From positions 842,624-906,623 of the forward strand of contig NMRA01000109.1 in NCBI GenBank assembly GCA_002633005.1: a DNA stretch of 64,000 nt. Reading direction: 5' to 3'. Shown here in pieces: positions 42,208-63,924 of the stretch (its first letter is position 1; every line of letters starts with the position of its first letter). This stretch comes from Phoronis australis (lineage: Eukaryota > Animalia > Phoronida). The notes under the pieces are model-generated. The model was not told the DNA's origin and did no database searches. It worked only from the letters and a program-made list of their open reading frames with translations. The translations under genes and the position numbers were made by a program.

Positions 42208-42844
42208 TTGCTACCAGAGCGCCATCTTGCATCAGATTTTACCCAAAAACGATAGCCCTCTAACATTTCACGAGATACATCGTGTGTAAATTTCATGTAG
42301 AATGGACGAAACATGTGACCTAAAGCATGGTACAACAGACCCAACAAAAAGCAATAAGGAATCAGTAAATAAAAGAAGTCCAACAACTCGATAACAACAA
42401 GTCAGAGCAGAGAACAGATTGCGCGATGTAGATATCGTTTGAAGAGATTTATTCAAATTTCTGCAGGATCCATCACGGGATTCTGGAGATGCGACATGAG
42501 AAATCAATCAATGAATAATGTCACTGTAAAAACTTGAATAACTCGAGAAAGAAAAGTTGACACAAGGAAGAGATAGCCCTCGACGAGATATGTTCACATA
42601 AAATTTCAACAGCCTACTTAAAGGACAGCAGAGCTCTAGCGAAAGGTCGGAAATTGGCAGTCACAACACAATCTTTGGACCAATTTCGCCACAAAACATT
42701 GGGCCTCGAGCTTTCAATTAGATACACATTGTGTGTCAATTCCATGTTGATTGGACACAAAATGTGACTTGTAAGTTGCGTACATAAAACAAACTACACG
42801 AAAAAACATCATTTTGCTATTAATAACCATGACAACAACCTCAC

Positions 42845-42986
42845 CTGTATCTGCTTGAGAATATTGATGACCCGGTTCATTGTATCACCATCTTTTTCAA
42901 ATGCTTCTTTAGTCAGTGGTTCAGTGAATATCCTCACGAAAGCGGGTATGTTGGACATCATCTCTTTTAGCACTACAGGGTTATTG
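42845..42986 (-). CDS. IPO5: Importin-5 penultimate coding exon (NNPVVLKEMMSNIPAFVRIFTEPLTKEAFEKDGDTMNRVINILKQIQ)
   Basis: Manual translation; gacag/GTGAGG; 142 nt, phase 2 to 0 fits. Confidence 0.85.
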
Positions 42987-43807
42987 CTGTCAAGAGAGGC
43001 AGTGTTATGTATTCCATAAAGCCAAATGTATGGTGGTATATTTCACCAATAAGAGAATCTCAACACGGAGCTTACAGCGCACACCAAAAAATCTGACAAA
43101 ATACCATTTCCTTGTTAATGACAGTTAATATGTTTACAGCAAAAATCACTAAAAAACTCAGGCAAAATCCTTAAAACAGAATAATATTTCTAAAGTGCCA
43201 ATTTTCTGGTAAATGTCTGGACATTTCTGTATGACGATGACTTCCACTTAGACCTGCCATCACGATGGGGAATTCCACGTCATTTTGTCCCATTATTTTG
43301 GCATGTACTGAATGTCCTTTAAAACTTAGGTACTCCAGTAAGACAGAGATGCCCCTCTCCGTTCACTGTATTGGCATGTGAAAATGATGTAATGTTCACC
43401 AATCACTGCGTGACGTGGTCATTGATTGGTTGAAGCTATCATGTGATTGGCTGATACTGAGTTCCACTATACATCTTGTCAAGGGGTGTGATTGGCTGGA
43501 GATTTTCAAACTTAAAGGAGCCCCTACCAAGATAGACCCGCTAACAATATTGTTTAGGAAACGAAGTAGGATGAAGTCCCTATGTAGAAAGCTTCAGGAT
43601 CGTTTTGTCAGGCAAAGGAGGCATGTGTGGAGAATATGGACAAAATGTCAATAGTTGGGCTCTTCAAAAATTGATTGGAGTTCACGAAAAAATCTGATCC
43701 ACGATTATTATGCGAGAATGCACGCATTTGGTATAATTTGAATTTTAGCCACCTCATTCAGAAACTATGGTCGAATAAGTTTCAGAGATAACTGCAGTTG
43801 AACCCAC

Positions 43808-44036
43808 CTCTCCACCTGATCACACAGGTATCCATATATGTGCTCAGCCTCGTCCTTGTCCTCCCAAGTCGGCAGCCATTTCAGCCAATGGGCGAGCACC
43901 TCATCAACTGTGACTGACTGCGGGGCGTACTTGAGGATCTTTGCGACGGCAGATATTGCGTTTTCCGTTGGCGAGACATTCTCAACAGATCTAGAGTCAG
44001 GATGGTCGACTGCCGCAATCAAACGCGGCAATGCTT
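43808..44036 (-). CDS. IPO5: Importin-5 exon (ALPRLIAAVDHPDSRSVENVSPTENAISAVAKILKY...WLPTWEDKDEAEHIYGYLCDQVE)
   Basis: TEN.ISAV.KI and WL.WLP..EDK.EA motifs; AG/GT; 229 nt. Confidence 0.95.
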
Positions 44037-44662
44037 CTGCAATAGCAGGGAAAGTGAAGCGAATCAATTAAATCGCTATTAACAAAGTTCTGACCAGGTG
44101 TCAAAAACAACTATCATCACAAGAGTAATTGCTCTATCAAAGTTAAGTTATCTTGTCATTCTGCGCTTGAATTGAAATTGGATGCAAAAAAATGCCTGAA
44201 ATTGCCCAGACAGTCATACTGCTTCGGCAGCTGAAAGTAACCCATCGTGAGAACGAAACTTCACGAACATGGTCTGACTAAGTTTCAGTTCTTCTGAAGT
44301 CCAAAAATGATTTCTAAACTGAACGAAAACAAGGTGAGGCCAGTTCTATAATGCTTAAAGGACAAGTGTACCTATAATGCTAAGTGGACAAGTGGTTCTT
44401 TAATGCTAAGTGGTCTGATTAAGTTATCAGAAAAATTGCTTTACCGAGTAAACTTTCGCATTTCGTGCAATGTCATTGGTTAAGTTTTGAGTGGAGCTTA
44501 GTGGTCAGGTGCCAAGAATTCAATGTATTCAAAAACATTTAAGTAGTTTACATACGTTAATATGATATTACTACATGAGTTACAGATTTTTGAAGTATAA
44601 GGTGTTATAATTATCACACAATCATTTACAATAAATCACTTATCATGGTGCCATACACGCAC

Positions 44663-44807
44663 CAGCGAAAACTCCATGGTAACCCTCTCCACCATTCATG
44701 GCCGCCACGCCAATACCATAGGAGGCCGCCTGTCGCACCTCACCGTGAGGGTCTGACAGGCACTTGACGAGTGTTTGAAGGAAATATTCCTGGTACTTCA
44801 ATGACGT
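44663..44807 (-). CDS. IPO5: Importin-5 exon (TSLKYQEYFLQTLVKCLSDPHGEVRQAASYGIGVAAMNGGEGYHGVFA)
   Basis: EVRQAA.YG.GV.A motif; ttccag/GTGCGT; 145 nt. Confidence 0.93.
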
Positions 44808-45055
44808 CTGGAAAAAGCCAAACAAAAAGGAGGGCAAAAACTTTAATAATGTGATCGTGGGAAACTTAATTGTGACTAAGGGAGAAATTTTGACTCCCTT
44901 ATAGGTGTTTTCTGATGGTTCGCAGTGCAGTGAACTAGTAATCTAGGGGCAACGAAAGCCATTGTGAAAGATTTCGGAAAAAAGGATGAATTGCATTTGA
45001 CCTACAATTTCACAAATTGTAGCCAACTTATCAATCACTTCATATATACACTTAA

Positions 45056-45442
45056 AGCCTAACTTCAACGGAATTTTATTTTAGATGTATTGGGGTAAAC
45101 AGATAGTCCTTGCAAAGTCTTAGTAAAATAAGAAAACCCGAGTTCAATCGCGCAAATGTGAGCCCGTCAAATGACAAGTGTCACCGCGAGATCCCAGCAC
45201 AAGCAACACAAGGCTGATAACAGTTGTATTGAATGGGGGTCTGAATAGAACACCACTGCGTGCACGTGTAATTCGCAGCTGTTTAAATTAAAAGGTGATT
45301 CTCGCGGTGACGTAGATAAAAGCAAATCAATACGCCTAACAGCTCGTTACATTTGGCAATTTATGGAACTAGTGGAATCAGAGCAATTCTCTTAACATAC
45401 TGTAGGAACTAAATTTACAGGTGTTACCGTTCAAGATAGGCT
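45056..45442. mobile_element. Kolobok-type MITE
   Basis: TTAA TSD on both sides; TIR AGCCTAACTTCAACGG vs AGCCTATCTTGAACGG. Confidence 0.75.
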
Positions 45443-45628
45443 TTAAAGCACTATTACCAACGAAAGTCATAAATTGCAAAAATGAAAATGACAACTTCTT
45501 GAATCTAATACAAATTTCTTTGAACTTTGAACCGAGAGTTTAAAAGCGGGTCCTCTTCAACAAAAATCTACGCAACAACAACCACGGTATCAAGGAGGAC
45601 AACCAATGTCCTCAAGTTATCAACGTAC

Positions 45629-45703
45629 CTTCCCAGTGTGTTCAATCACATCATCCCAGATACACAGACCCCATTGTCGGTCTGGCCATGGACGGTCTTC
45701 ACC
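45629..45703 (-). CDS. IPO5: Importin-5 exon ([25 protein letters not shown])
   Basis: [18 protein letters not shown] motif; CAG/GTACGT; 75 nt. Confidence 0.93.
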
Positions 45704-46455
45704 CTGCCAGGGAAAACAGGATCAAGTGCTGACAATGTCTTAAAGTCCATTAACTCAAATTGACCGTGAACAAGCCAATGATACAAACAATGAGATTCTA
45801 TATTTACTAAAGTTGAGAGCTTATGTAGGAGCATAGAAAAATGTACAAATATGGCTGACTTTGGAACATTATATTTCAGAAATATCTGTTTGGATTCATA
45901 TGAAACTTTCAGGTGCCATGCCTTATACATTATTCTCCAAAACAGTGTTAAGAATGTGGGCTATCAAAAATAGGACCTCTTTGATTCACGAAAAAATTGA
46001 TTGCACAAAAATAACGAAATGATAATTTAGAAAACTTTACAGCACTTTTGAGAACTCATCTTGACGTTTACATTCAATAAAATTTGATCATGCTATTGAT
46101 ACTATTGTTATTACAATAATGTACCTTTCGTTTTTTGCTCAATTTTACTTAAAAGACAGTCGCATGATTCAATTACTGGCAGATCGTTAAAATGTGAAAA
46201 ATCAAATTCTTCAGACTTTTTGCTTTAGAGGTATAATCTATAGTTTAGTAGATATTTGGCTAAATAGGCAGACATGGAAATAAGCTCTTACAAAGCCTCA
46301 AGACAGCCGCCTGACAAAGCAATTTCACGCTAAATACACAGGCAAAAATTGCTTTACACATGTACTCCCTGAAACACTCCCAAAAAATTCCATGGCATTT
46401 CTGACCACTCCTGTATAACTTCTAATGTTGTACTTTGTTCAGATTGCTCACTTAC

Positions 46456-46578
46456 TAATAACTTGACAAAATGCGGCAAGAGTGAGTCAAAGAAGGGCAG
46501 AATGGCTTCCTTGTGTGTCCCCAGTAGAGCGTGCATGATGTCTGATAATTTACTCAATATGTATACATCTTCGTCATC
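46456..46578 (-). CDS. IPO5: Importin-5 exon (DDEDVYILSKLSDIMHALLGTHKEAILPFFDSLLPHFVKLL)
   Basis: DVYIL.K.SDI.H motif; tttag/GTAAGT; 123 nt. Confidence 0.93.
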
Positions 46579-47031
46579 CTAAAATGAAGTCACAATACAC
46601 AAAAATCAATGCATGCAGACGAATGACTTAGCAGACCATTACGCAATACAGAAGAGGACCTTTACAGACACAATGCGTTTCACCATACACGGCAACACAA
46701 TAGCAGGCTATATTTGGTATCTCAACATACACAACAGCACAATAACATGCTACACTTGACATTTGAAAAAGGCAAGAGGAGTCAGCCAGAGATACAGCAC
46801 AAGACAAAAGTAATCAGACAAAAAACCGTTTTCCCGTCATGACTACTAATTCTGTTCACAGCAAAAATGATTTGTAATAACTATTAGGGTGGTGAAATTC
46901 TAATTACAGAATGGCTTAGCCACATTACAAATTTTCCTGTTAATTCCCTTTCATTCTCGGTCATGACAGAACACTGACCAGGAATTCGGCTCCTGCCCAG
47001 CCTTCACAGTGGGGAATCCAGATCATTTTAT

Positions 47032-47136
47032 CTGTCACATAAGTATTCAATACTTCTGGCTTTTACCTGTCACATAAGTATTCAATACTTCTGGCTTTTA
47101 CCTGTCACATAAGTATTCAATACTTCTGGCTTTTAC
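47032..47136 (+). repeat. 35-bp tandem repeat x3
   Basis: CTGTCACATAAGTATTCAATACTTCTGGCTTTTAC perfect copies. Confidence 0.95.
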
Positions 47137-47278
47137 TGCACCATCCGTAACTACTTTCAACTTTACATGTTCCATTCACTGTACATCCATCGTCCATAAA
47201 AAATGGAATTTCTCCAAGAGGTAATACAAATCTGATCATGCCCCAATACATAAAATTTCCAATAACTAATAACCTTAC

Positions 47279-47334
47279 TTCATCTAAGAGACCTTCTTCA
47301 ACCACGTCATCATAATCTTCATCTTTTCTTTGCT
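47279..47334 (-). CDS. IPO5: Importin-5 small acidic exon (EQRKDEDYDDVVEEGLLDE)
   Basis: R.DEDYD..VEE.L.DE motif; ttttag/GTAAGG; 56 nt, phase fits. Confidence 0.9.
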
Positions 47335-47848
47335 CTAAAAAGAGAAGAAAAAGAAACCAAACTCAAAATTTACTACATGGAAAGAACCATATATATATAG
47401 TCATCATTTAGAAAGACATTCCTGCATTCTACAGCTTACCATACCTCGAAATTGAATTCCCCCAAAAAAACCGAACGAAAATATTTGGTTTTAATTTTGA
47501 CCTCACTAGGAATGGTGACAGGAACGTGGTATATAGTGTCCTGCGGGTTCACCATCAAAACTTGGTCACTAGACAAATTTGGAAATCTAAGTACTCATGT
47601 CCTCATTTGGAATCTAATTGTTTATCGCATTTGAAATAGGCATGGAACGATTAACTGTTGTCCATTTTCTGTGACCTGATTAACTTATCAGAGTTAATTT
47701 GTGAATCAGCTTGTATCATACTAATTCATACTACTTTCTTCAAATTTCAACACAAGCCATTTTGGTATCAGGCTTTCTGAATCACTTCCTATTCTTCACC
47801 ATGAAAGATTCCAATCACACATACCCACGTCAACATGACATTACCCAC

Positions 47849-47960
47849 CTTGTCGTGCAGTCTGCCTATCAAAGTGTTCCTGCATTGTCTTGTCCAGTAA
47901 CTGACCCAGCTCCATCAACTGTTGTTCACTTAAGCAGCCCACACCAAGTTTCTCAATACA
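47849..47960 (-). CDS. IPO5: Importin-5 exon (CIEKLGVGCLSEQQLMELGQLLDKTMQEHFDRQTARQ)
   Basis: Manual translation; CIE..G.GCL motif; ttgcag/GTGGGT; 112 nt. Confidence 0.92.
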
Positions 47961-48463
47961 CTGCAATAAGAAGGTGATAGTCCTGGTCATGTGTGAATGC
48001 ACATCCTAGACTAGCAACTACTGTGACAATTATGTTGGGAAGTTTATGTATTTCCATTAACCTCTTTACAGATAGATAGCCTGAGATTTCATCTACACAA
48101 AGGATTGTTGGATAGCGGTCATCTAAAGCAGCCTCATTGATAGATGTGCATAAACGGTCTTCAGAAATCACTTCGTTTTAATTCGCATTTCAAACAGCAA
48201 AAAGTTCAATTTACCATGCAAATAAACAGATAGAATGTAATACCTAAAATCAACTACCAGCTTACGAGCAAGACGATTGTCTGCACAAGTCTTTCTGAAT
48301 TTTGGATTAGGTGACTTGTTTCCCAAAAATCTCTTCTCTAGGATGTGCCCAAATCGACTTTCGCTATCCAAAAGCCAACGGTGATCCATTTTTTGTATTG
48401 AATTTGTATTTGCTAAAACAAATTTGCAGTAAAACACAAACATGACTAGTTTTCCTAAATTAC

Positions 48464-48636
48464 CTGAGAAAACGACTCAAAATGTGCAGCTTTAGCTAAG
48501 TGATCGGGTTCCGTGGCCATCGCTCTCAATAGCTGCGGACAAATATACGCCCAGACATCATGGACAAACAACTGTCCCAGAATCTGACTACAGCCTATGA
48601 GATGGGGCATGATCTCTGAGGCTGCCACTCGAACAT
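48464..48636 (-). CDS. IPO5: Importin-5 duplicated exon, variant B (DVRVAASEIMPHLIGCSQILGQLFVHDVWAYICPQLLRAMATEPDHLAKAAHFESFSQ); candidate mutually exclusive exon
   Basis: Same 173-nt length and phase as variant A; 29/58 aa identical with no indels or stops; U12-like branch TTCTTAAC (48653-48646) then AA; CAG|GTAATT donor. Confidence 0.8.
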
Positions 48637-50047
48637 TTGGGCAATGTTAAGAAGAAAAAATTAAACTATAAAATTGGTTGAGTTATCTATCGGTGGTAAC
48701 AGAATCGTACAGTTAAAGTCTCATCCGATTTCTATCAAGGTTTTCATCATAACTTTGATAAAGTCAGACGAATTTCGACGATGATCTTCAACTTTTTTGA
48801 AAACAACTGCAGCATGTATGGCAGTAGAGTGGATTGCAAAAACAACCACTGAATGAAACTAAAAAATACACATGCATGTTTGTTCTTGAGAGGGTAAAGT
48901 TACACAGCTTAAGACCCATCCACACTCAGCTGACAGAAAGCAGGTTTAGATACAAAGAAAGCTTGTATGATGGCAGACTCTCAGAAAGCAATGGGAGCTC
49001 ATCACGCGGGACCGGTGACTTTATCGCCACCTGGCTGCACCGAGAGGTACTGCTTCTTCGCAGCGGGTGACATGGGGGTACATATTCGTGAAATGACCAG
49101 TAAATCTGATTAGATGCAAGGTGCTTTAAAAAACAGCGAAACTGCCTTCTCATCCTCAAGAAGCCATTGTTAGCTGCTCCCACGTGATCAGCTGCCAAGC
49201 TGCTACTTGAAGGTTTCCCATAGTGATTATTAGTCATGCATGAAATGTGTGGAATACTTTGCCATCACGACACCAGTTCCATGAGAACCAGAGTCCCATC
49301 TATAATCTCCACACTTGAACTACACAATGGTTAACGTTCTAAGCCGAGTTTGGGCTTGGTAGTGGTTAAGTGTTAGAGTCAAAATATTCTGTCATCAGTG
49401 AGGGTTTGAACTAAGCAGAAAACTTTAGTTTTTATTGGATATGAAATTAATTTTGAAATTCATGTTTTTTTACACCTGGACTCAAAATGTGAATTTTCAT
49501 ACGTATCTCTAACACAGGTGCCAATTTAAAGTCTCTTTTTTTGTTTCACACATCAGTCGAGAACTGATTGTGAAATATCTTACTAAACGGAATGACCAAA
49601 TAAATGCTATTGGTCTCAATAAGAATGTACAAACTTTGAAGTCTTTATCTCATAAAACGTAGGAACTGTAGCAATTTAAAATTTTCAAAAGCGATTTCAA
49701 ATGCTGCAAGCCACTGGCGACAAATGAATGGAGTTAGAAAGTACTAGCTTGAAACATTTTAATGATTTTTTGTGTTCAAAGCCAACCAGGTGCATTGTAG
49801 GTAATAAAGAAATCATTGTAAAAGACCTAAATATCGTGTAACCATGGGTTACAAATTTCCAAGTTTCTAAAATTAGTAGTTTTGGGGTTATAGAGTTCTC
49901 TAAAAAGTCAGAAAAAATAATAGGAAAAGGATGAAAACCCTACAACAGTACTCTGTGCTGGAAGGCGCAATGTCAATTACACCATATTCAGGTTACATAA
50001 ACTGCATCAAGTGCAAGCCCAAAGAACCACACCTAGCCACAGCCTAC

Positions 50048-50220
50048 CTGACTAAGTGAGTGCATGTTCTCCGCCAGGATGTCTTTCTCCGGCTCCGTTT
50101 CGATAGCCTTGAGCAGGTTAGGACAGATGTAGTTCCACATATCCACCACAAACTGGTCGCCGTTGATACGCGCGCAGTCAATCAAGAAGGGCAAGCTCTC
50201 AGCAGCAGCCACTCGACACT
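50048..50220 (-). CDS. IPO5: Importin-5 exon, variant A (ECRVAAAESLPFLIDCARINGDQFVVDMWNYICPNLLKAIETEPEKDILAENMHSLSQ)
   Basis: RVAAAES.P...C and AI.TEP motifs; U12 acceptor, GTAGGC donor; 173 nt. Confidence 0.93.
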
Positions 50221-50351
50221 GTGCAGCGTGAGTTAAGGCAGAACATGCTAGGCAGGTGCGCGTGCCAGTGAAAAGGAGACATTAGCATACTTGCAACCCA
50301 TGACATGAGAAGCATCTGCTGATGATCCCTCAACTGTTCTGGTTTCTTTCG

Positions 50352-50563
50352 TTTTATGTTTACCAGTGAGTTACAACACCATACACAAGGCTGACAAATG
50401 TGTCCCACCATAGGATGAATTCATCATTACCCAAATTTTCCCATTTCTGTCAGACTTTTATGTTTACCAGTGAGTTACACCACCATACACAAGACTGACA
50501 AATGTATCCCACCATAGGATGAATTCATCATTACCCAAATTTTCCCATTTCTGTCAGACTTTT
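50352..50563 (+). repeat. ~104-bp tandem duplication inside the U12 intron
   Basis: Two near-identical copies starting at 50352 and 50456. Confidence 0.9.
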
Positions 50564-50751
50564 GACTGATTTTAACCAGTATAAATACGGAGCAAGCCAC
50601 AGTATGCTGGTCATGAAACTGGCCAACTGTTGAGAGGTCACAAATCTCATGTTTGGAATCTTCATATCCAAACATGTGTAACTGCAGTCACTGTTGCTGA
50701 AAAATGTTAATAGTAGGGACCAACTACTAACCAGCCCATAATACTTCAAAG

Positions 50752-50910
50752 ATCAACCAACATCCACGTCTGTATATAGAGATTAGCCACCACCCACGTG
50801 CATATATAGAGATTAAACACCACCCAAATGATTAGAGATTAACCACCACCCACGTCCATATATAGAAATTAACCACCACCCATTTCCACATAGATTTACC
50901 ACCACCCTCC
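50752..50910 (+). repeat. Degenerate ~30-bp minisatellite (accaccacccacgt..atatagagatta)
   Basis: About 5 imperfect copies. Confidence 0.75.
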
Positions 50911-51173
50911 TTCATATACAAAGAATAACAAACACATGTTTTGACTTCAATCTGAGCTCAAGATTATCAAACTTTACTTAAGACTTGACTTAGAAGTTAA
51001 CTATTTGCTTAGACTGGATACATTTCGAGTAAACTTCTCGAGTGAATTGTAGTGGCCTCAGACAGATTTCATCGTAGAGTTAGCTTCCAGTCTTCAATAA
51101 CTATGTAAACTAAAACATTTAGGCTGCACATATTCTACTGATGTGCGTGATCAGACATGCTGCGCAAGGATAT

Positions 51174-51330
51174 CATCGTTGAAGTAGAACTTGAGCAGCG
51201 GTACCATGATCTTTACCACCTGTCCTGCGTACTCAGCGAAGCCTTCCTTGAGCTCTCGGGCGTAGCAGACCAACATCTGGCAGGCAGTGGCCTTCTCCTC
51301 GAGGCCTGCTGTGCGGATGCCAAAACTTTG
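51174..51330 (-). CDS. IPO5: Importin-5 exon ([52 protein letters not shown]), ends at a U12 AT donor
   Basis: Manual translation; TAG acceptor; followed by ATATCCTT minor-spliceosome donor; 157 nt. Confidence 0.95.
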
Positions 51331-52001
51331 CTAGAACAACAAAAAAACAACAGTTAACAAAGCTAACTTAAGTTCGCAGAGCACAACGAATTATAGTTAC
51401 GAGTAGTCAAATTTGGCGCAAAAGGATATCGTCGGTTCTTTCACACATTACTCCCTGAGTTTTCAATTGGAATTAAAATTGTTGAGACAAATAGCAAACT
51501 TTAACTCGAAACAAACTGCACTGAGACTGAACAATGGAACATGGCGCTCTATTAGACGTTATTAGCCAGAAACATAATTTGAAACAGCATTACAGTATTG
51601 TAAAGTAACCAACATCAACTTCACCTGGAAAGCAGCCCGTCGCCAAAACTTAGGTTGGAAAAGCAAAGAATTTTTTAGAGAAAAAATAATCAACCGAAGG
51701 CAACATGAGGCACATTGTTTTGAAGATGCCAAAATTCTCGAAAATATGTATTTTTGACAGCCGAGCTCGTGTTCTTAACAGAAAATCTCAGACATGTTTG
51801 AACAAGGTTGTGCTCAAAACAACTAAAAAATTACCAGTTGAGATTCATTTTACTTTATACTACGAGACCTAAAAACCTCATCAACTGCTTCTGAGGACAC
51901 AATCCATCAAATTGAGATTTATTCTGGCTTGAAGTTGTCAAACCAAATAATTGACATATGAGCTTCAAATTCAAGAACACCTGACAACCCGATACATTTA
52001 A

Positions 52002-53653
52002 AGGAGATTGTCACCCCACTGAATCAAGTCTTTTTTACCGTCTTAATCGGTCTATATCCACATCGCCTCTTATACGGTCGACCTCACCTTGCCGAGAGGT
52101 GTAGCGTTAACCTAAGAGGAAGGTGAGAAACGACGCAGCGACGTCAGCGGTTCATTTGCAGAGTGCATGCCACTATATTACGGTTTATCATTCCCGCTTA
52201 TCCGAACTATGAAGATGCGAAGTAAGCGGGTATATCGTTTTTTCGACTTCCTCGAGAGCCCGAAATCCTTAGGAAGTGGCTCGCAGTAGTGAAGAATGAA
52301 ATTTACGCTATTAATAGCAAGCATGAGGCCGTGAAAAATCTCCGTTTCTGCGGCCGGCATTTCGTCCACAGTGATTTCTCTGACAAATTCCGGCTTACCA
52401 AAGAACTATCCATGCGTTCCGTTGCCTGTGCATGTTCACGGCGCCTCTCTAGTATTTCTTGATCAGTGTACTCCGGTTCGAACTGATAGCCTGTGAAACC
52501 TAACAATTCGACACGTGAAGCCTTCGTCAGATGAGCTCTCGACTAAGTCGGGATTGGTGCCGGGCGAGTTGCCTCGCAGATGTTTATTATTCCGCATTGT
52601 GTTTTAAAACGAATCATCCTCATCCTAACCAATGCTTTTATAAAACTGAAACAAAGTCTGTCTCATTAGATGCAATTTCGAAAGCCTTTGGAGTATTCGC
52701 GAGTGCAAATGTTTTGAGAAGACAGCAATGAATAAATAGCTGCGTTATCGGCTTAGTGCAGTAAAGGTAATTGACCAGGCATCGAGGCCGTGTGAGCCCA
52801 TGCTAATTCAGTGTTTGCCGACAGAAAGCTGTTGTGAAACAATAACTCGATTTCATATGCTATGGTCACATGTAAGGGGAATCTTTATTTAGAAATACAA
52901 ATACATTATTCAAATCATTGTTACTGCACAACCTTTGCCCTGATGGTTCTGTTGAAGGGGAACCTGACTTCGCGGCCCCTGACAAGTGAGTAGATTTTCA
53001 GTTTCGTGGCTAATTCACCTAAATAATTACGTGCACATTATTCATTTGGCTAACTGTTATAGTCTTTTTGTGACTGGAGGTTTAGTTTCCAACTTAAGCT
53101 GGTTTATGTTCGTGATTTCCACTCCCGGCGGCCACAACGGGCCTGATCGGGTTCTGAGACACTGGCGGGAGTAACAAGCGTTTTGTGTGTTTAGAACTGA
53201 AAAAATCGCAAGTCTTAACGTACAACACAAAGCTATGCTCCCCGTCTGTATTTCACAGAAGAATGATTCGAATTTATCACCAAACAGACCCAAACTCACG
53301 CGATCGACCATGGTAAATTGGCCTACCGAACTCTGCAGGCTACGGTACATTCAAATACCTATAAATCCGTAACAACATGTTTGTTCAAGAACTCGATGTA
53401 TTTGTAAGGGGTTTACATCGAATTTTGATGATGTACTGGTGTAAAACGATGAATTTAAGCGATAAGTTGACACCAGTAAGCGTGTTCTTAACGGCTGAAC
53501 AGACTGTGTTCGAACCGATTACGTCATTGTTTAATTTCAACACCTCCGTCTGCCGTTAGGTGTCAGGTAAAACAACTGAACTTGCTGTTATCAAGTGGAA
53601 CTACTTGATCTAAGTTGATACAAAATAGGTTGTTTTTTGGGTGGCATTCTCCT
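52002..53653. mobile_element. Internally deleted Kolobok DNA transposon with THAP and KolX remnants
   Basis: TTAA TSDs; TIR AGGAGATTGTCACCC / AGGAGAATGCCACCC; + strand 52226-52378 THAP-like GISFFRLP...RKWL...FCGRHF; - strand GYQFEPEYTD (KolX/P2X7-tail-like N-terminus). Confidence 0.85.
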
Positions 53654-53717
53654 TTAAACAGATGAATATTGCTAACGCCTAAGCTTGCAGGCAACACACC
53701 GAAAACCAATCACTTAC

Positions 53718-53779
53718 CTGGTCTCCGAGAGTAACAAACTGCCAGTCCTGGTCACCCTCAAGAGATTGCACCTTCTCAT
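53718..53779 (-). CDS. IPO5: Importin-5 small exon (EKVQSLEGDQDWQFVTLGDQ)
   Basis: W.FV.LGDQ motif; ttcag/GTAAGT; 62 nt, phase 1 to 0 fits neighbours. Confidence 0.9.
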
Positions 53780-54311
53780 CTGAAATTAGAAACATGGAAA
53801 TGAAGGCGAGTTAACACAGCTGCTCAACAAGTCACCCTCAGCCATACCTTGATGAGCCTTGATCACGCTTTGCACCATAAAATGCTCTCTCCTGGTATTA
53901 GCCTTCAATGCATCTTTCAAATGAAACAAAGGTAATAAAATTCAAAAAATATTTGTTTTGAGATTAATTTAAGAAATTTCTTATAAAATTGCATATTACA
54001 CATTATGTTGACGAACACCTTTTGTATTCAGGATAAACAAATTGCTTGGTAACAGTCCTTCAATCAAACACACTTTGATAAAAACATGACAAGAGTTGTC
54101 ACATACAATGTTTTATTTGTATTCGCCCCAGTTTTGTAGTGAAGTCTTGTCGGTTAAACCCAGGGCCCAAGGCTATACTCTAGCACCCACAGCTTGATGG
54201 ACTAAGGATCCTACAACACACAACTTCCCAGATTTTAAACATTTACTCTTTTTCTTTTAAACTCACCAATTTAGAACACAGCAGGAGTTTCATCAAAATA
54301 AAAATGTCACT

Positions 54312-56758
54312 ACAAGAGCAACACAGATCGTTGAAATGTGCCCACGACTGNCACCACAAACGGTGTGCTTCTAGGGGGGTTTAATTGTCTCATAAAAATG
54401 GCCACTCGATTGCTCAGAATAGATTGAACATATTTAAAAATGGGAAGGTGTCGTTGTCTCTCAAAGTTATTTGCCAAATTTTATGGAAATCTGTCAAAAA
54501 ACATAGGAAAAACGTAAAAAAAAATCTGTCATTTAGAACCACAGCAGTAGTCAAATCCATCCATCTGCTGTCAAGTTGATAGGAATACAATAAAAATTGC
54601 AAAATTTCAAAAACATCTTGCAAGGAGTTTAGGAGATACAGTTGTAGGTGCGAAAAATGTCACTAGGGGGCACCACCATGGTTGGACCCATTTGAAAATC
54701 CATGACAACCATGCTCTTGTCAGTAAGAACACATCTGCTAATTTTCATAAAAGATCCTCTATGCAGTTTGGCTGATACAGAAACAACAATAAAAACAGAC
54801 TATAAAATAATTAAAATGGCCACTAGTTGGGGCAGAATACGTCGAATCCATCACAAAAAGGAAAGATGTTGTCGTTTTCATAAATACCCCATTTCATGAA
54901 AAAGCAATAAGGAACATAAAAATAAAAATGCCATTAGGGAGTACAGCTGTAGTTGGATTGGTCTGAAACTCACCGTCATCTGTATGGGTAAAGGAGATAC
55001 AGCCGTGGATGTAAGAAAATAAAATTGCAACAAGGGGGGCCAGAGTAGTTGAACAAACTCGAAAATCGGTTTTCTCATCAGGAACACATCTCCTAATTCT
55101 AATGATGATCCTTCAAGTGGATTGGTAAAAAAGAGGGTGATGTCAAAAATGCACTCAAAACTTTTTAAAATGACCACTGAATGACACAGAATACGTCAAA
55201 ACCGCACGAAAATGAGAAGACGTCATCGTCTCCTTAATAGAAACCAATTTTCAAAACTTCATGATAATAAAAACAGCCATTACATGTTAAATCTATCTGA
55301 AAACTATTTATTTCATAAAAATTTGTCATGGAGATTCAAAGATACAGAGGACAACGAAAAAAACATTGTCACTACGGGGGGCACAGCGGTAGTCGAATCC
55401 ATCCAAAAAAACTACCACTATGCGACACCACAGTACTCTGAGTCGTTCAAAAATCCCCGTCAGCAGTCCTCTTCATAGTAGAAGCATAAATGCCAATTTT
55501 AAAAATCATTCTCTGAGTGGTTTGGTTGAAAGAAGGGACCAGAAAGACTAGTGAAACAGTAAAAATGGCCACTAGATAGGGCAAAATACGTCGAGTCTAT
55601 CCGAAAACGAGAACATGTCATTGTTTCTCTAATAGAAAGCTATTTGCCAAATTCATAAAAATCTGTCAAAGAAATCAAATTGCCACTAGGGGGCATAACG
55701 TTCGTCGGATCCGTTGGAAAGTTGTCATAGTGAAATTCATATGAATACACTTGTTAAATTTAATGAAGATCTTGCAGAGAGTTTAGGAGAAATTGCCATG
55801 CAGGCAAAAAAAAACATAACTGCCACTAGCAAGCACCACAATAGGCGAAGTCGTCGGAAAATCATCGTCAGTCATCCTCTTCATAGTAGGAATTTACATA
55901 TGCCAATTTAGAGTGGTGACAGAGGGCAAAGGCCAAAAAACATACTAAAAACTGTAAAAATGGCCACCAGGTGGTGCAAAATACCTCATATCATTCTGAA
56001 AACAGTATAGCGTCACCTCCCTAATAGGGAGAACCTGTGAAAATAGAGGTAAACATAAAAAACTAAAATTGCCACTAGGGGGAGGGGGGGGGGGCACACC
56101 AGTAGTCGGATCCGTACGAAAGTCGTCAAAGTTCGCCACTAGGGGGCCAAATCAGTGAGTAGTCAGATTTGTTCGAAGGTCGTCATCATTCATTCCCAAC
56201 TTCATATAAATACACTTGCTAAATTTAATAACGATCCTGCAGAGGGTTTAGAGACAGCCATGGGCGCAAAAAAACTGCCACAAGGAGGCACCACAGTAGT
56301 CGAGGTCGTCAGAAAATCGTCAGCCATCTTCTTCACAGTAAGAACATATCTGCCTATTTTCACAATCATCCTTGGAGTGGTTTGGTTGGTACAAGGGTGG
56401 ACACCAAAAACAGACTTCGAAACAGTAAAAATAGCCACTATGTGGCTCAAAATACCTTGAATCCATCTAAAAGTAGGAGGAAAGGGTCATCTTACTTAGA
56501 GATGCCTATTTGACAAATTTTATGAAAATCCACTGAGGACCTTTGGAGATACAGAAGTAAACGTAAAAACTAAAATTGCCACTAGAGGCACACCAGTAAT
56601 CGGATCCGTCCAAAAGTTCGCTCATGTCTTCCCATCCGTTAAAGGAACACATGTGCCAAATTTTATGAACATACATCAAAGGGTTTTGGAGATAGAGCAG
56701 CGAATGGGACAGGAATGACGGCATAATGCACCCACTTACAATCTGTGGGCACATAAAA
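54312..56758 (-). mobile_element. Older HINE copy of the same family with degenerate tandem cores
   Basis: acaagagcaacacagatcgttgaaatgtgcccac start and tgtgggcacataaaa end; repeated gccactag cores. Confidence 0.8.
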
Positions 56759-56909
56759 CTACCAACATTTCGTAACTTTCAGCTCTATCAGTGTTTGCCT
56801 TATTTTACTATTATTTAATAAGCCAATTTTGGACATTCTCCTGAAGCCCTACATAAATTTAAGTTTAACTATTGCCATCAGGAGATAATCGTTAACATCT
56901 AACACTTAC

Positions 56910-57042
56910 TATCGACCACGGCCACCTCAGGCTTGATAGAGGCTGCTTTCAACACAGGACCCATCACCAGGGGAAGGTACTGCATGAAGCCCTTGCCCAT
57001 AATCTTGCACATTCGCGCCCAAGCTGAGATCATGTATGACAT
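56910..57042 (-). CDS. IPO5: Importin-5 exon ([44 protein letters not shown])
   Basis: Manual translation; [20 protein letters not shown] motif; CAG/GTAAGT; 133 nt. Confidence 0.95.
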
Positions 57043-57204
57043 CTGGAGAGATTAAGAGGAGACAACTAATAACACCAAATGAAATAAAAAAGAAAAATGG
57101 CTGCCACAGCGCCATCTTGCATCAGGCATTTTTTTGTGTGAATGTGGTGTCAACTTGATGAGAGTCCTCAAAGAAATTATTATTTTGACTGGTTTTGAAT
57201 AGTT

Positions 57205-57713
57205 CAGGGCTTGGAATGACCAATGACAAAAAACGCGGAAACTTTTACGGCCCAAAACGCGCTACCCAGCCTTGAAATAGTCGATGTGAACCTTTCGCCA
57301 ACAAAAATTGGGAGGACTTAGAAAAAAAAAGAAAGAAAAACGTTACCACCATCAGTAGCATGCGCCTGCGTCTTTTTAGACCGTCCTCTCCCACCCCCCC
57401 ACACACATTTTTGGCTGCAGAGCCGTAGTATTTGTCACAGCGGTTTACAATCACACGAGACGCCATTGAAAATCCAACCACGCTATCCCAGATGTCCCGG
57501 CAATGTTGACAATTTACGTTCCTCCGAAACATAAAGAGCAACTTCCGCTTTTCGAGGTGAACGTCGTCGGCAACGCCGCGGTAAGAAAGGAATTTGCCGC
57601 GGAAATTTTATATCAAATCCAATTTTTTTTTACCCGGAAATATAATAAAATGCGCGGACAGAACATTTGAAAAAAGCGGAAATCCGCGTTTCCGCGGAAA
57701 ATTCCAAGCCTTG
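57205..57713. mobile_element. hAT-like MITE
   Basis: TIR CAGGGCTTGGAAT / ATTCCAAGCCTTG; partial TSD atagtt; subterminal cgcggaa motifs. Confidence 0.65.
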
Positions 57714-57990
57714 ATAGTTTGTAATTGAGACAAGACAAGTTTTCACTACTTTTTACAAAGGTTTAAACTTTTCCGCGGTCACTGGCATTTCATACGTTTA
57801 TGGAGACACTGATTAAATTTTGTCCACAGGACTATGGGAATTTTTGTACCCGAATCAAATACATTGATTTGTTTCGATATATAACATACAGTAAATTCGG
57901 CATACTATCAATTTCAACTATCTTATTTGGCAAACCCATGTCCGGAAATTTTGAAATCAATGTCCATGTATTTGACCTGTGGTCACTCAC

Positions 57991-58192
57991 CTGGGGATCA
58001 TCTTCAGCCATGTCCCCCTCCTCCACCTGTGTCTTGAGCAGTAGCTGCATTACATCACTACAGTCAGCCATGAACTTCTCCTGCCCCACAGCCAGCCCAA
58101 TCAGACTGATGCACTCGATCGTCTTGCCACGCAGCAGCTTCAGTTCTGGGCTGGTGGCATTTGCCATAATAAGCTTAAGGTTGGGCATGAAC
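57991..58192 (-). CDS. IPO5: Importin-5 exon ([40 protein letters not shown]...DDPQ)
   Basis: [17 protein letters not shown] motif; AG/GTGAGT boundaries; 202 nt. Confidence 0.96.
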
Positions 58193-58233
58193 CTGAAGGG
58201 AGTGAAAAAGATATGACGACACAAACCATATAA

Positions 58234-58514
58234 TACAGGGCCCTGGTTCACCTGAGGGCAAAGGCAGCTGTACCTTATGAAGGGTGAATTTTTGGTGAGG
58301 GGAAAATTTCCTCTTCCCAAATCATCACCAATTCCAACCCCCAGGATTCCCTCATGAACTTATTTTTGCAGAAGTGATTCCAACTTAGAATGAATTTTTT
58401 AATCATTGGAGGGGAATTTTTGGGTCTGATGAGGGGAATTTCGCGTGATCTTCTAATACTTTTCACGGGGAACGAGGCTTTCAGCCCAAAAATCGCGTGA
58501 TTGAGGGGCCAGTA
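58234..58514. mobile_element. Small MITE-like element
   Basis: Imperfect TIR tacagggccct / aggggccagta; related sequence at the window start. Confidence 0.4.
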
Positions 58515-59960
58515 ATATCAAACCAGCTTTAGAAGATTTGTTCCCTCACTCGTCTGAAATGGATGGGTACAATTAAGTCACAAGTATTAAGACAAAATGA
58601 CCAGGAATTACACGACTGAGAATGAAGGGGAATCAACAGTAAGGTGGCTAATCCATTCTAAAATTACAATTTTGCTGCCCTAATAGATATTAACAGTACT
58701 TTTACTTACATGTATTACAATGCAATGTTAATACCAATTTCGTTTTCAACAATGTTAATTCGAATGACCTGGACACATGGAGGAGGATACCTTTTAACTG
58801 CACAAGACACGAAGTTGCATCGGTTTTAGTACCGCCTAATTCACAGGATATTGCCAACCAATAACTTTTTGCATAAAATTAAAGTAAAAACAGACAACCT
58901 ATGTTTTTTTTTGTGGAGAGCACAGTGAAACTTTTCTTCATTTGTTTTGGGAATGTCATCTTGCATCTCGTTTTTGGCTCCTGTTCACTTTTGTTAACCT
59001 CGTTAAATTACATCCTGAAGTGTTATCTCTTAATTAGTCATGATGATCCATGCTGTTTTGCTATATTTTTTCATCTCCTCGTTTTTGTAATTTTGTTTGC
59101 TAGAGAAGAATAAACATTTGAAACCTGAAACAAACCTGTAAGTTTACTGTTAACAGAATTAGACATAATGACGGGAAAACAGTATTTTGTCCGACTGCTT
59201 TTGTTTTCTACTCTGAGACAGGAAAACTTACTGGGCGACACACACAATCTGTTCTAATAATACAAATAGCAATACCACTGAATTATTTTTGATAAAAATA
59301 TCTGTTTTGCAAAATAAAATGGATGTTCCTAGATGCAAACATAATATGTCATAGGTTGTGGTAAGGGAAACGAATTTAAATTTTAATTTAGACCTTGGCA
59401 ATAGCAGGCAGTTCAAAATAAAATCTTAAGTGCACTGAGACATTTTATAATAATATTATTGACAAATATTTTATGATGTTGCCTGTATTGTAACAAAATA
59501 TATTTTCTACAGAATTCTACACTAACTATTTGCTTTTTCAAGAACATATTTTTTTGGCTTCAAAGGTCATAGGTCACACTTCAGAGAGCAACGAGAGACT
59601 TGACTCATACACAGGAAATCAATTGAAATGAATGGTATAGCAAGAGTTCACATTAACCATTGATATAAACTTGCATGCATGATTGATGATCAATCATCAT
59701 AATTTATAAGACACATTATCACTGAGCAATGATATATCACTTCATGAATAATAATCAACCAAAGTGAGGGTGTACTGGCAGAAAAAGAGTTTGCTACTAC
59801 AGGAGGCAACCATACTTTAGTGGAAATCTTTGATTAATTCATAACTTCAGAGAAAAAGTTTGCCACTGCAGGGGGCAGACACGTTGTGACAACCATTTCA
59901 AATTACAAAACAACATCAAGCATAAAGTTAGCTACAGCTTAACACAGGCAGGTATATTAC

Positions 59961-60061
59961 TTGTCATAGTACTGTATGAACTTCTCCTCTGCAGTATCGG
60001 CCACACTGGCTAAAGTTGTCACCGCCTGCTCAAGGACTAATTTTTTCCCTTTCTGCTGCAG
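59961..60061 (-). CDS. IPO5: Importin-5 exon ([33 protein letters not shown])
   Basis: Manual translation, not in ORF track; ttcag acceptor, GTAATA donor; 101 nt. Confidence 0.93.
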
Positions 60062-60135
60062 CTGAAACGACAGGATAAGCGTCCAGTGAAATTAAGAGTT
60101 GGCACTGCATACATTTATAAACAAACAGTTCTTCT

Positions 60136-60572
60136 TATAGTGTAATTAAGCGAGAGTTGGTGTCTGAAGAATATTTGTCCTATTTGAGTTTACATCTGCA
60201 AAGTTGTCTCGCTCAGTTCAGATGTTCAGTTCATAAACTAAACATAGAAGTGGGTAGACATCGAGGGTGTTGCCAGGAACGGCAGAATTTGCGATGTATG
60301 CAACCTAGGCAATGTTGAAAATGAGATACACTTTATTTGTCGTTGTCATGCATTAAAGATTTAAGGAAAAAATGCAAACCGGAGGGCAGCTAAAGAAAAA
60401 TGTTAGGTATATTTTTCAATCGAAAAGTCCAGAAGTTATAAAACACCTGTCTTTGTATCTTTATAAAGCAACGATATTGAGAACAGAAAGGCTAACCCTT
60501 TAATATGTTATATAATAACCGTATGCCTGTACATGTAAGTAATGCTTAATGTGTACAATAAATGATTGAATG
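60136..60572 (+). mobile_element. 3' end of a LINE (C-terminal CCHC domain, RTE-X-like)
   Basis: LAQFRCSVHKLNIEVGRH / RICDVCNLGNVENEIHFICRC with one frameshift; AATAAA plus short tail; TSD AGTTCTTCT at 60127-60135 and 60573-60581. Confidence 0.8.
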
Positions 60573-60834
60573 AGTTCTTCTCCAGCGGGTAGCTATTTTA
60601 GCAGTGAAGTCAGACAAGTTCTTTTTCAACATGAATGCACAGACTTATAGATAGGAGATAAAGAGGGAGAAATAGAGTGGATCATTTTTTCCAAAAAACT
60701 CGTTCTTAGAACATTTAGCAACTTACATGCCACTTTATACTCACGCAGAGCCTATATGTTGTAATTCTAACTAATTTGGCGAAATAATCATCGATAGAAG
60801 TGGTTGGCGTAGAAATTAAACTTTAGGTAATTAC

Positions 60835-61008
60835 CTCATCTAATTTATTTGTGAGCATTTTCTCCAGACTAATTATGATTTGGTCAAGGTAGGGTGCCAG
60901 TATGTTCTTGGGACAGTCTTCACTGAAGTTAATGAGTGCTGCGCCGGCGTGCACCTGTACACGTGGGTGGTTGTAGTCCTCCATGACCTGCAGCAGAGCT
61001 GGAACCAC
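60835..61008 (-). CDS. IPO5: Importin-5 exon (VVPALLQVMEDYNHPRVQVHAGAALINFSEDCPKNILAPYLD...)
   Basis: AG/GT boundaries, 174 nt, phase 0/0; RVQ.HA.AALINF.EDCPK motif. Confidence 0.95.
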
Positions 61009-61312
61009 CTGAAACACATGGGAGTCAGAGGTGAAAGGTGAAAGGAAGCACTGAACAAAGTGAGAGTTGAAACGTTAAGGTCACACTATAAACGTGGAAT
61101 AGACATGTTGTCTTTAAATTAAACTAAGAAGGAATTTTGGAACATGCGAGTTTCAACAACTCTTACAGATATTCATAATGTAATATGACTTTTGTTTCCT
61201 CACCACTCAACAAAAATTTCAGAAGTCATATTAGCAATATCACATGAACGATGGGTTACTTATACATTTTGTAATTCAACTGTGATGGAGATCGAAAAAG
61301 CGGAGGTGTTAC

Positions 61313-61402
61313 CTTTTCATGAAACTTTTTCTGTAGCGTGGGTCCAAAATCCGTAGACATCTGACCAATAGCGTTGCACGCAGCATACCTGACGCGAGGA
61401 TG
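61313..61402 (-). CDS. IPO5: Importin-5 exon ([30 protein letters not shown])
   Basis: HEAT motif [17 protein letters not shown]; tttcag acceptor, GTAACA donor; 90 nt. Confidence 0.95.
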
Positions 61403-61470
61403 CTGAAATAGGTATAAACTACTGCACCCTCTGTCACACAATTTAAACTTTTCAAGTATCACCCATAATT

Positions 61471-62860
61471 AAACAAGAGCTACACGGAGCGTTGAAATGC
61501 ACCCACGAATGCATTGCAAATGGTGTGCTTTTAGGGTTGTGTCATAAAAATGGTCACTAGATGGCGCAAAAACGTACAATCCATCCGAAAACAGGAACAT
61601 ATCATTGCTTCTTTAATAGAAAGCTATACACCAAATTTCACAGAAATCCGCAGAAACAAAGGAAAACGAAATAAAATGAAATTGCCACCAGGGGGCACAC
61701 TTTTCATTGGATCCGCCTGAACGTCGTCATTGTATTGTTAGCTTCATATAAATACACTTACTAATTAAATTTAATAAAGATCCTGCAGTGGGTTTAGGAG
61801 ATACAGCTATGGGTGCAAAACAAAACAAAACAAAACTACCACTAGGAGGCGCCACAGTAGTCAAAGTTGTCATGGTCAACCGTCCTCTTCACACCGAGAA
61901 CATATAAGCCATATTTTCAAAACCATCCTTAGAATGATTTGGTTGACAGAGGAGTAGAGTCCATTGAGGACCTTAGAAGATACAGAGGTGAACGGAAAGC
62001 TAAAATTGCCACCAGGTGGCACACAAGTAGACAGATCCATCCGAAAATAGTCGTCGTCCGTTGTCAACATCATACAAACACACTTGTCAAATTTAGTAAA
62101 GATCCTGCAAACGGTTTAGGAGATACAGCCATGAGCGCAAAAAACGAAACTGCCACTAGGAGGCGCCACATTAGTTGAAGTCATCGGAAAATCATCGTCA
62201 GCCGTCCACTTCATAGTTAAAACATACATGCCAATTTTCACAATTATCCTGAAAGCGATTTGGTTGATACAGGGGTAGATGCCAAAAAACAGACTCAAAA
62301 ACAGTAAATATGGCCACTAGGTGGTGCAAAAAGATCGAATCCATCTGAAAACGGAAAGATAGTGTTATCTCACTAACAGAAGCCTGTATGCCAAATTTTA
62401 TGAAAATACGTTGAGGACCCTTGAAGATACAGAGGTAAACGCAAAAAAAATAAAATTACCATCAGTTGGCACACCAGCAGTCAGATCTGTTCGAAATTCG
62501 TCGTCGTCCGTTGTTAACATCATATAAATGCACTTACTAAATTTAGTAAAGATCCTGCAAACGGTTTAGGAGATACAGCCATAGGCGCAAAAAAAAACAA
62601 AACTGCCATTAGGCACCACAGTAGTCAAAGTCGTCGGAAAATCATCTTCAACCATCCTCTTCACAGTAAGAACATACATGCCAATTTTCACCATCATCCC
62701 CAGAAGGGATTGAATGGTTGATTGAGGCAGAAGCCAAAAAACTGACTCAAAAACAGTAAAAATGGACACCAGGTGGCGCAAACTACGTCGAATCCATCCA
62801 AAAACGGGATGATACTGTCGACTCACGAATAGATGCTTATATACGAAATTTTGTGAAAAT
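61471..62860 (-). mobile_element. Truncated HINE copy with ~3 core units
   Basis: aaacaagagc...gcgttgaaatgcacccac terminus and ~450-bp cores; other terminus not seen. Confidence 0.8.
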
Positions 62861-62930
62861 GAGAGTCACAAAGCATGGATGAAAACCATCTATGTCTACA
62901 ACCTGGTAGTTCACATGTCACTATACACAC

Positions 62931-63055
62931 CTGATCCAGCAAGAACGGTAGAACGGAATCGACTACGCTGCTCAGCACAGTCTCCATCTGTTTATGACAG
63001 CCCTCGCCGCATGCTGAGATAGCCATCAGACCACCATGTCTGTAGCGCCAGTCAG
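62931..63055 (-). CDS. IPO5: Importin-5 exon ([41 protein letters not shown])
   Basis: TAG acceptor, GT donor, 125 nt, phase matches neighbours; IPO5 WxYRH..LMA.SA.GEGC motif. Confidence 0.93.
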
Positions 63056-63601
63056 CTAGAAGGCAAGAAAAAACACATTAATGTCACTTTCCTATTAAGG
63101 AAACTCCAGCCTATTGAAACTCTGCTTACCTTTCTCACTAATGTTAAAAATATGTAAAACACACTTATCGCTTGTTCTATGTGGTAAACACCAGATGGCA
63201 TAGTTGATTCACAGTCTTGATAGAGCATGTGATTGATACTTCGAGACTGGATTCAACCCTTCCCACTAACTGGGTTTTCGCAGCTCCACAGTTTACTATA
63301 ACTTAGTAATTTGAGGAATTTAACCCAGGGATTTACGCTTTCATACTGACTGAATTCCTTGAAACAAGAGTTGCGATGCAAGTGTGAAAGTGACATACTT
63401 ATGACAGACTGAATCACTTGTGCACTTATGAGGCATGCGTTCTAGCAAGACAGTGAACTCAATAGGTTATCACTAACTTGACAGTGTTGAGGGTGTGTCA
63501 TAGTAAAACAGACAGCTGACACCCAGATGTTGTTCTACATCAAGACTAGAACAGCAGTCCATGGCACGGTGTAGACAGAATACAGCAATAAGAGTACTCA
63601 C

Positions 63602-63708
63602 CATTGTTCAACATCTGTGGCACAGTAGAAATGATGTGAGGAAGCATTGTCTTTCCACCTAAACCACATGCCAGGCGGTCCAGGGCACTCTCACCGGCTA
63701 TTGGGTTA
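63602..63708 (-). CDS. IPO5: Importin-5 internal exon ([36 protein letters not shown]); most 5' exon in the window
   Basis: [14 protein letters not shown] motif of IPO5; CAG acceptor, GTGAGT donor; 107 nt, phase 2 to 1. Confidence 0.93.
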
Positions 63709-63924
63709 CTGGAAATGGAGACAAGCATTGCATGTTCAGTAAACCTACTACGGATTGCACGTAGAATGTGGCGATACTTAAGATAAGATAAAAAGTACAA
63801 TGCAACAGTAACTAGATTTAGCCCCAGCGGATTTCAAACAGGAAAAATGAGTTGAAATGAACATTGCCATTGATTTGAAGCTAGCAAACATCTCTCTTCA
63901 GTTTGCGGTTTTATCACCTGTAAT

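Follow-up and report, generated by a model that had tools for sequence, protein, structure and literature searches.

The question raised by this locus is whether the importin-5 gene of Phoronis australis carries two alternative copies of one exon that are kept out of the same message by an intron with a donor of the major (U2) class and an acceptor of the minor (U12) class. Such a cassette had been proposed from the letters alone, in what we call the sequence-only reading. Here we examine it within the window, that is, the whole stretch of 64,000 nucleotides whose positions are used throughout. The two copies are named exon A and exon B. Papers are cited by their PMC identifiers, and what is said of each refers to the part of it that was available.

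An importin-5 gene with a duplicated exon

A mollusc IPO5 (P0003) matched the window by tblastn in collinear exons running from 63713 to 42848 on the minus strand, with the 5' portion of the gene lying outside the window. Residues 716-775 of this protein matched twice, at 50221-50048 and at 48634-48458, and human importin-5 PDB chains were matched by both exon A (E=1e-16) and exon B (E=3e-7). The gene shows the succession of HEAT-repeat exons expected of an importin-5/Kap121 homologue, and the PDB-chain matches together with the collinear mollusc exons confirm its earlier identification as importin-5. Of 17 exon peptides, all but the one from the exon at 63713 were compared, and none revealed another duplicated exon. 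The features used below are the following.

42845..63713 (-): importin-5 (IPO5/RanBP5) gene; exons for about residues 331-1066 of mollusc IPO5, from tblastn and exon peptides
51174..51330 (-): constitutive exon before the cassette; 157 nt, ending in phase 1 in ...FND-G; RNA junctions 53718 to 51330 and 51174 to 50220
51166..51173 (-): U12 5' splice site ATATCCTT; used in RNA and orthologous to that of human IPO5 intron 21
50221..51173 (-): U12 intron of AT-AC type leading to A; length 953 nt, 16 junction reads (X1-X3)
50232..50238 (-): CCTTAAC, predicted U12 branch motif for A; AC acceptor 11 nt further on
50048..50220 (-): exon A, the expressed copy; homology to human importin-5, RNA junctions
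48637..50047 (-): hybrid intron, 1411 nt, predicted to stay unspliced; combines the U2 GT donor that follows A with the U12 branch motif and AA acceptor that precede B
48646..48652 (-): TCTTAAC, predicted U12 branch motif for B; in-frame AA acceptor 9 nt further on
48464..48636 (-): exon B, diverged paralogue of A; intact, with signs of past purifying selection, none seen in RNA
47961..48463 (-): predicted U2 GT-AG intron of 503 nt, between B and the shared exon downstream
47849..47960 (-): shared downstream exon with U2 acceptor TTGCAG; joined to A by 42 reads and to the exon that follows by 28

Other features of the window are noted here for completeness. Introns of the gene contain interspersed repeats at 51950-53750, 40600-42300, 54400-56800 and 61500-62800; an element at 52027-53657 has inverted ends, is covered by RNA on both strands from other copies, and is likely a non-autonomous DNA transposon. 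An open frame of 220 codons at 25158-25820 (+) resembles, by eye, what we take to be a fragment of a retroelement RNase H.

Splice signals of the two copies

Both exons are 173 nt long, run from phase 1 to phase 0, contain no stop or indel relative to each other, and are in frame with the flanking exons. They agree at 29 of 58 residues: the encoded residue is identical at 29 of the 57 whole codons and differs at the split codon, which encodes E in A and D in B. In addition, 19 of the 28 identical degenerate residues are encoded by different codons. Aspartate and glutamate number 10 in A (9+1) and 6 in B (5+1), the split codon included. On recheck the coordinates, lengths, phases, donors and branch motifs of the sequence-only reading were all correct, and our recounts of identical residues, acidic residues and differing codons agree with it.

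The exon upstream of the cassette ends at 51174 and is followed by ATATCCTTG. The donors are CAG/GTAGGC for A and CAG/GTAATT for B. The branch heptamer YCTTAAC occurs 14 times in the 64-kb window on both strands (the chance of finding it in a given slot of 11 positions is about 0.001); on the sense strand between 39000 and 64000 there are only four, two of which are the branch motifs of A and B. An A-type (AT-AN) U12 intron has an RTATCCT donor and, close to an AN acceptor, a branch motif like CCTTAAC; these features are present and spliced in the case of A, and present as signals in the case of B. Likewise, the arrangement of one U12 and one U2 flanking intron is seen in RNA for A, and the same signals surround B. 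The intron between the two copies has ends of different classes, with a GTAGGC donor, a TCTTAAC branch motif and an AA acceptor.

The acceptor of B lies in the run CCCAAAT, which appears to be its weak point: the in-frame AA stands 9 nt from the heptamer, a frameshifting AA (+1) and AT (+2) follow at 10 and 11 nt, and an AG at +9 is in frame. The optimum spacing between U12 branch site and acceptor is 11-13 nt (PMC3584512). Since the orthologous introns of human IPO5 and of three metagenome loci (L054, L058, L059) use 8 nt, the 9 nt of B, as against 11 in A, would be natural for this intron. Human AT-AA U12 introns exist as well, with 10 matches in one table, PIGB and MSH3 among them (PMC8280824).

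Conceptual splicing supports the frameshift that had been predicted for joint inclusion: A plus B runs into a premature stop, and so does the skipping of both exons. Among nearby AG sites that the donor of A could use, a stop follows for five of six.

Several further observations concern the surroundings of these sites. A perfect U12-donor-like motif, ATATCCTTT, is found at 51421-51429 (-), preceding the acceptor of exon 51330-51174 by 99 nt; it is the only such 9-mer in the window and sits in a 28-nt stretch with 71% likeness to the genuine donor region. With an AG located 25 nt upstream, an in-frame micro-exon would result, and RNA depth in the bin 51440-51696 is zero. The motif is either a product of chance or a U11 decoy. 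The U12 intron contains tandem repeats at 50352-50559 and 50747-50944 (a 104-nt sequence present twice, at 97%, and a unit of about 30-56 nt present four times). Three TGCATG hexamers, presumably RBFOX-type motifs, flank B on the minus strand, two upstream (49240, 48876) and one downstream (48220), where 0.68 would be expected (P about 0.03, uncorrected). A search for competing RNA structures gave 34 inverted repeats of 11-26 nt, none of them convincing.

The U12 intron of IPO5 is real and old

Human IPO5 intron 21 is an AT-AC U12 intron sensitive to CENATAC, and its dependence on U11/U12/U6atac or CENATAC is shown in the same paper (PMC8280824). It shares with the intron of the window its position and phase (FHD-G/VR) and the donor core, and its branch motif lies 8 nt from the acceptor (PMC8280824). 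For human IPO5 no duplicated exon is listed, unlike the gene of the window. The U12 donor position was also found in L054 and L058. Across 80 metagenome loci (L001-L080, many of them near-copies from few taxa) the acceptor of the orthologous intron is AG in 48 and AC in 4, and the intron is absent from 28, which may be transcripts or cases of intron loss. These data show that the U12 intron of IPO5 is real and old. It is also labile: loci with an AG acceptor and the donor within the contig mostly begin with a U2-type GT, and one (L006) retains a U12-like branch motif before an AG.

RNA evidence for A and B

We read 18-19% of each of three raw RNA runs from one study (X1-X3), in which tissue identity is coded, and in addition a set of contigs (X4), all under the same species label as the window. 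Depth was taken in 257-nt bins from reads at least 90% alike. Since X4 contigs show one difference from the exons of the window in 112 bases and none in 111, the RNA comes from the same or a very close species.

The AT-AC junction to exon A (51174 to 50220) was seen in 16 reads (7+7+2 in X1-X3), which establishes the proposed U12 use of the upstream intron for this copy. The junction from A to the downstream exon (50048 to 47960) was seen in 42 reads (18+15+9) and in one X4 contig, and the upstream junction 53718 to 51330 in 16+6+11 reads. The sequence-only reading had therefore predicted both junctions of A rightly; its two junctions of B (51174 to 48636 and 48464 to 47960) did not appear among the joints listed in X1-X3 or in the X4 contigs, so that no transcript with B was found in the three raw runs or in the contig set. 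The two bins over B had depths of 15, 0 and 0 bases vs 3,107, 2,917 and 1,948 over A (total 7,972), and the 15 bases adjoin a repeat. Some depth over the U12 intron in X2 and X3 reflects intron retention or repeat reads. Junctions from A to B and double-skip junctions were likewise missing among the joints listed; as B had no coverage, the predicted absence of A to B joining is uninformative.

With no B among the 42 downstream junction reads, use of B in these tissue-coded samples lies below about 7% (95% upper limit). Three quarters of human tandem-duplicate exons are tissue-specific (PMC9741552), so the absence of B from three samples is not unusual. The sequence-only reading would be refuted by an absence of B transcripts from every tissue, and missing reads in samples of coded tissue leave it neither refuted nor cleared of that refutation.

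Exon B carries a strong signature of past selection

Identity between A and B is 34/57 at first, 40/57 at second and 17/57 at third codon positions. Synonymous differences are saturated (pS 0.80) while pN is 0.38, and in 2,000 bootstrap replicates pN-pS never reached 0. In 18,000 simulations of an exon B neutral from birth, spread over six divergences, none gave an exon with no stop, at least 29 identical residues and at most 17 identical third positions.

We also scored B against a profile of the family, built from 48 homologues after the removal of 60 of 108 proteins that had gaps, were truncated or were redundant. The score of B is 70, as against -21 +/- 17 for neutral copies and 83-194 for family members, and none of 5,049 stop-free neutral replicates reached the score of B, with the reservation that this profile is biased, many of its members having been found using B. 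When the comparison used 10 of 13 proteins, found via another exon, the score of B was reached by 3 of 3,000 neutral copies whose protein divergence matched that of B, and by 167 of 3,000 at a lower divergence. Codon-position identities, simulations and profile scores together argue strongly for past purifying selection on B in the IPO5 reading frame, as had been suggested from the codon differences, and neutrality of B since the duplication is rejected by the codon-position test and the simulations.

Selection on B appears to be relaxed or redirected relative to the family, because its profile score falls below the family range, it keeps 17 of 28 conserved columns (A keeps 24), and its branch in the homologue tree (57 columns) measures 2.05 vs a median of 0.16. 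The signature carries no information on present use of B, since a pairwise comparison of A and B averages their whole history. Survival of an intact neutral exon, at an indel rate assumed to be 0.1 of the substitution rate, would be about 0.19 at 0.05 substitutions/site, 0.04 at 0.1 and 0.002 at 0.2.

Searches for an orthologue of B

Exon A falls near mollusc sequences, weakly supported (93/0), on a tree of 57 columns, a position that by itself would point to a probable host among molluscs or other lophotrochozoans. The nearest homologous segment to A is identical at 41 of 57 residues, and it was within this range, which makes for a weak test, that we looked for the orthologue of B called for by the sequence-only reading. 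None was found: a word-index search of longer proteins gave 0 of 26 candidates, a metagenome scan with patterns from B gave 0 of 259 pattern matches, and HMMER over 1.84 billion representatives returned 89 matches, of which 4 are unrelated repeats and the rest are nearer A. Among 68 non-redundant homologous segments, cluster member sequences P0109-P0136 included, none is closer to B than to A. None of the 80 loci has a second full copy of the exon (both flanking introns are present in 23, one of these still AT-AC), and no names of isoform pairs were found among the cluster members of 10 proteins.

A and B have in common 8 residues that differ from the majority, whereas any of the 68 homologues shares at most 7 with B; for this reason the sequences weakly favour a lineage-specific duplication.

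A truncated copy of the same IPO5 exon was detected at L046:770-874, on a contig clustering with sequences of bivalves. The copy comprises the first 33 codons, lies directly upstream of the intact exon, and runs into a pyrimidine tract without a donor. It is dead and gives a picture of the fate of an unselected duplicate.

Predicted protein consequences of swapping A for B

The duplicated exon encodes h16B (the inner helix of HEAT 16), h17A (the outer helix of HEAT 17) and most of h17B (the inner helix of HEAT 17), with helices counted on a predicted model of P0003 and long loops in repeats 8 and 15, as in importin-4 (PMC12933015). In B, 21 of 24 hydrophobic core columns are still hydrophobic; a model of B from an alignment of 24 rows, and driven by that alignment, has three helices at pLDDT 90, and a language-model search reads B as a HEAT segment with scores of 0.94-0.97. 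The lower acidity of B that had been pointed out involves four conserved residues: D14, E40, D46 and E50, acidic in A and in 84-96% of the 68 homologues, are G, A, L and A in B.

The B helices of HEAT repeats line the inner, cargo-facing surface. Isoform B would retain the fold of HEAT 16-17 minus four conserved acidic residues, which could tune ring closure or the binding of RanGTP or basic cargo. The ring of importin-4 closes by a face of h17-h18 on h6-h9, and importin-5 is described in a review as closing similarly (PMC12933015).

Comparison with known locked exon pairs

The sequence-only reading had taken exons 6a/6b of JNK as its precedent. JNK (MAPK8/9/10) 6a/6b and TMEM87A/B 11/11a are, like the pair of the window, paralogous exons in tandem, flanked by a U2 intron on one side and a U12 intron on the other and separated by a hybrid intron, and in both one exon is the default and the other tissue-specific (PMC1874599, PMC8329584, PMC6717393). 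Their polarity is mirrored, however: the U12 intron lies downstream, the hybrid consists of a U12 donor and a U2 acceptor (PMC1874599, PMC8329584), and it is the major spliceosome that picks the acceptor. In the window the hybrid consists of a U2 donor and a U12 acceptor, and the minor spliceosome would pick the acceptor, which places IPO5 outside the JNK/TMEM87 subtype.

The better precedent is human MAPK14 (p38-alpha). For its U12 donor at chr6:36076609 the listings give a pair of acceptors, at 36095986 and at 36100187 (PMC8373072, PMC6717393, PMC8280824, PMC10853781), which directly precede the paralogous 80-nt exons 36095987-36096066 and 36100188-36100267 (PMC8373072, PMC6717393, PMC8280824). 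No U12 intron is listed after the 80-nt exons in the available parts of these sources, and to judge by those listings their downstream introns are presumably U2. MAPK14 has the same polarity as the IPO5 gene of the window, and an exon length that is also not divisible by three. It differs from it in belonging to a different gene family, in its GT-AG U12 intron (the IPO5 donor of the window is AT, with acceptors AC and AA), and in that both of its isoforms are annotated transcripts with proteomics support, whereas exon B has no observed transcript.

Pairs locked in this manner are rare: 5 of 629 human clusters (PMC5740500) and six in a preprint, the worked cases being kinases and TMEM87. We found no duplicated exon described for IPO5 in the literature searched, a coverage that mostly leaves out subscription journals; IPO5 had no match in a tandem-duplicate catalogue or in those supplements of PMC5740500 that were searched (n=10), and the available parts of PMC2831892, PMC11347168 and PMC8883539 mention no such cassette. 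As far as searched, the cassette is new for importin-5 and unusual in pairing AC and AA acceptors, while the switch itself is of a known kind. We provisionally assign the pair to the U2/U12-locked mutually exclusive exons (the MAPK14, JNK and TMEM87 type); the assignment is provisional because spliced transcripts were seen for A and none for B.

Discussion

Exon B is probably a mutually exclusive exon of rare use, likely confined to certain tissues, with the lock provided by an intron that has a U2 donor and a U12 acceptor. The IPO5 exon that follows the conserved U12 intron would have been duplicated in tandem long ago, copy A being spliced through the AT-AC intron and copy B serving as a rare alternative restricted to some tissue or stage, reached from the same U12 donor through an AT-AA intron. 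The intron between the copies is predicted to be unspliceable, as joining A to B would pair a U2 donor with a U12 branch site and an AA end, and skipping both would pair the U12 donor with a U2 acceptor; each message would then carry exactly one copy, and the premature stops on joint inclusion and on double skipping would add a second barrier. U2 and U12 sites are generally incompatible (PMC3584512). Dual-type acceptors are rare and are reported in GU-AG introns (PMC10853781), unlike the AA acceptor of B. The lock accounts for exclusivity and not for choice. A may win by default, being proximal and having an AC end, and activation of B could depend on a splicing factor that either represses A or favours B.

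The missing transcripts could also mean that B was functional through most of its history and has recently been silenced, for example by a change of its acceptor from AC to AA, and now persists as an intact relic beside a constitutive A. Its lack of RNA in all four data sets would then be explained, as would an AA acceptor with out-of-frame competitors at a position where AC is found in the human gene and in each of the 4 other orthologous U12 acceptors from the loci. The long branch of B and its lost conserved residues fit relaxed constraint, and the pairwise signal of selection cannot date the last use. Against this, the interval in which a silenced exon stays intact is short (about 0.19 survive at 0.05 substitutions/site), while the selected history spans about 1-3 substitutions per silent site on each branch; catching B within so short an interval is unlikely a priori. 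The RNA is moreover limited to three samples of one study, of coded tissue, with 18-19% of each run. We regard recent silencing as unlikely, though as the chief rival explanation.

Degraded transcripts would escape RNA-seq too, and B might be a poison target to which the U12 donor is joined one or two bases out of frame, so that nonsense-mediated decay tunes the level of IPO5. The choice of 3' sites in U12 introns is described as error-prone (PMC3584512), and joining at the AA at +1 or the AT at +2 would give stops within 11-15 codons of the junction. Yet selection has acted along the entire IPO5 frame of 57 codons, something a poison exon would not require, and we hold this explanation to be very improbable. 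More improbable still is a B that has been a neutral pseudo-exon since the duplication, or an artefact of the assembly (an allele or a mis-join). The lack of B expression and of an orthologue would suit it, and the truncated dead copy in L046 shows that such duplications arise and decay; however, none of 18,000 simulations reproduced the data, copies with 53% nucleotide identity and flanks that do not align are not alleles, and the splice signals of B are intact and in register.

A more specific form of the preferred reading, a rare alternative exon, would place the switch in the minor spliceosome itself. An AT donor choosing between an AC and an AA acceptor may respond to the state of that spliceosome (3' site fidelity, or CENATAC, a factor specific to A-type introns), yielding in germ cells an importin-5 whose HEAT 16-17 surface lacks four conserved acidic residues, a switch of cargo specificity. 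In human and mouse, IPO5 peaks in testis, where it exceeds the next tissue 4- to 8-fold (PMC6717393). We consider this version decidedly doubtful; if true, the cargo specificity of a nuclear import receptor would be set by the subtype of a U12 intron.

If B is dead, the locus would be a snapshot of a long-selected exon just lost, which is of modest interest. If B is used, a pair of this kind would be found in a carrier of the importin-beta family, where a single donor would face competing A-type acceptors of two kinds, and would provide a clean natural reporter of the 3' site choice of the minor spliceosome. HEAT 17, which lies in the swapped segment, belongs to the ring-closing face, so the pair could reveal surfaces that set the cargo range of importin-5.
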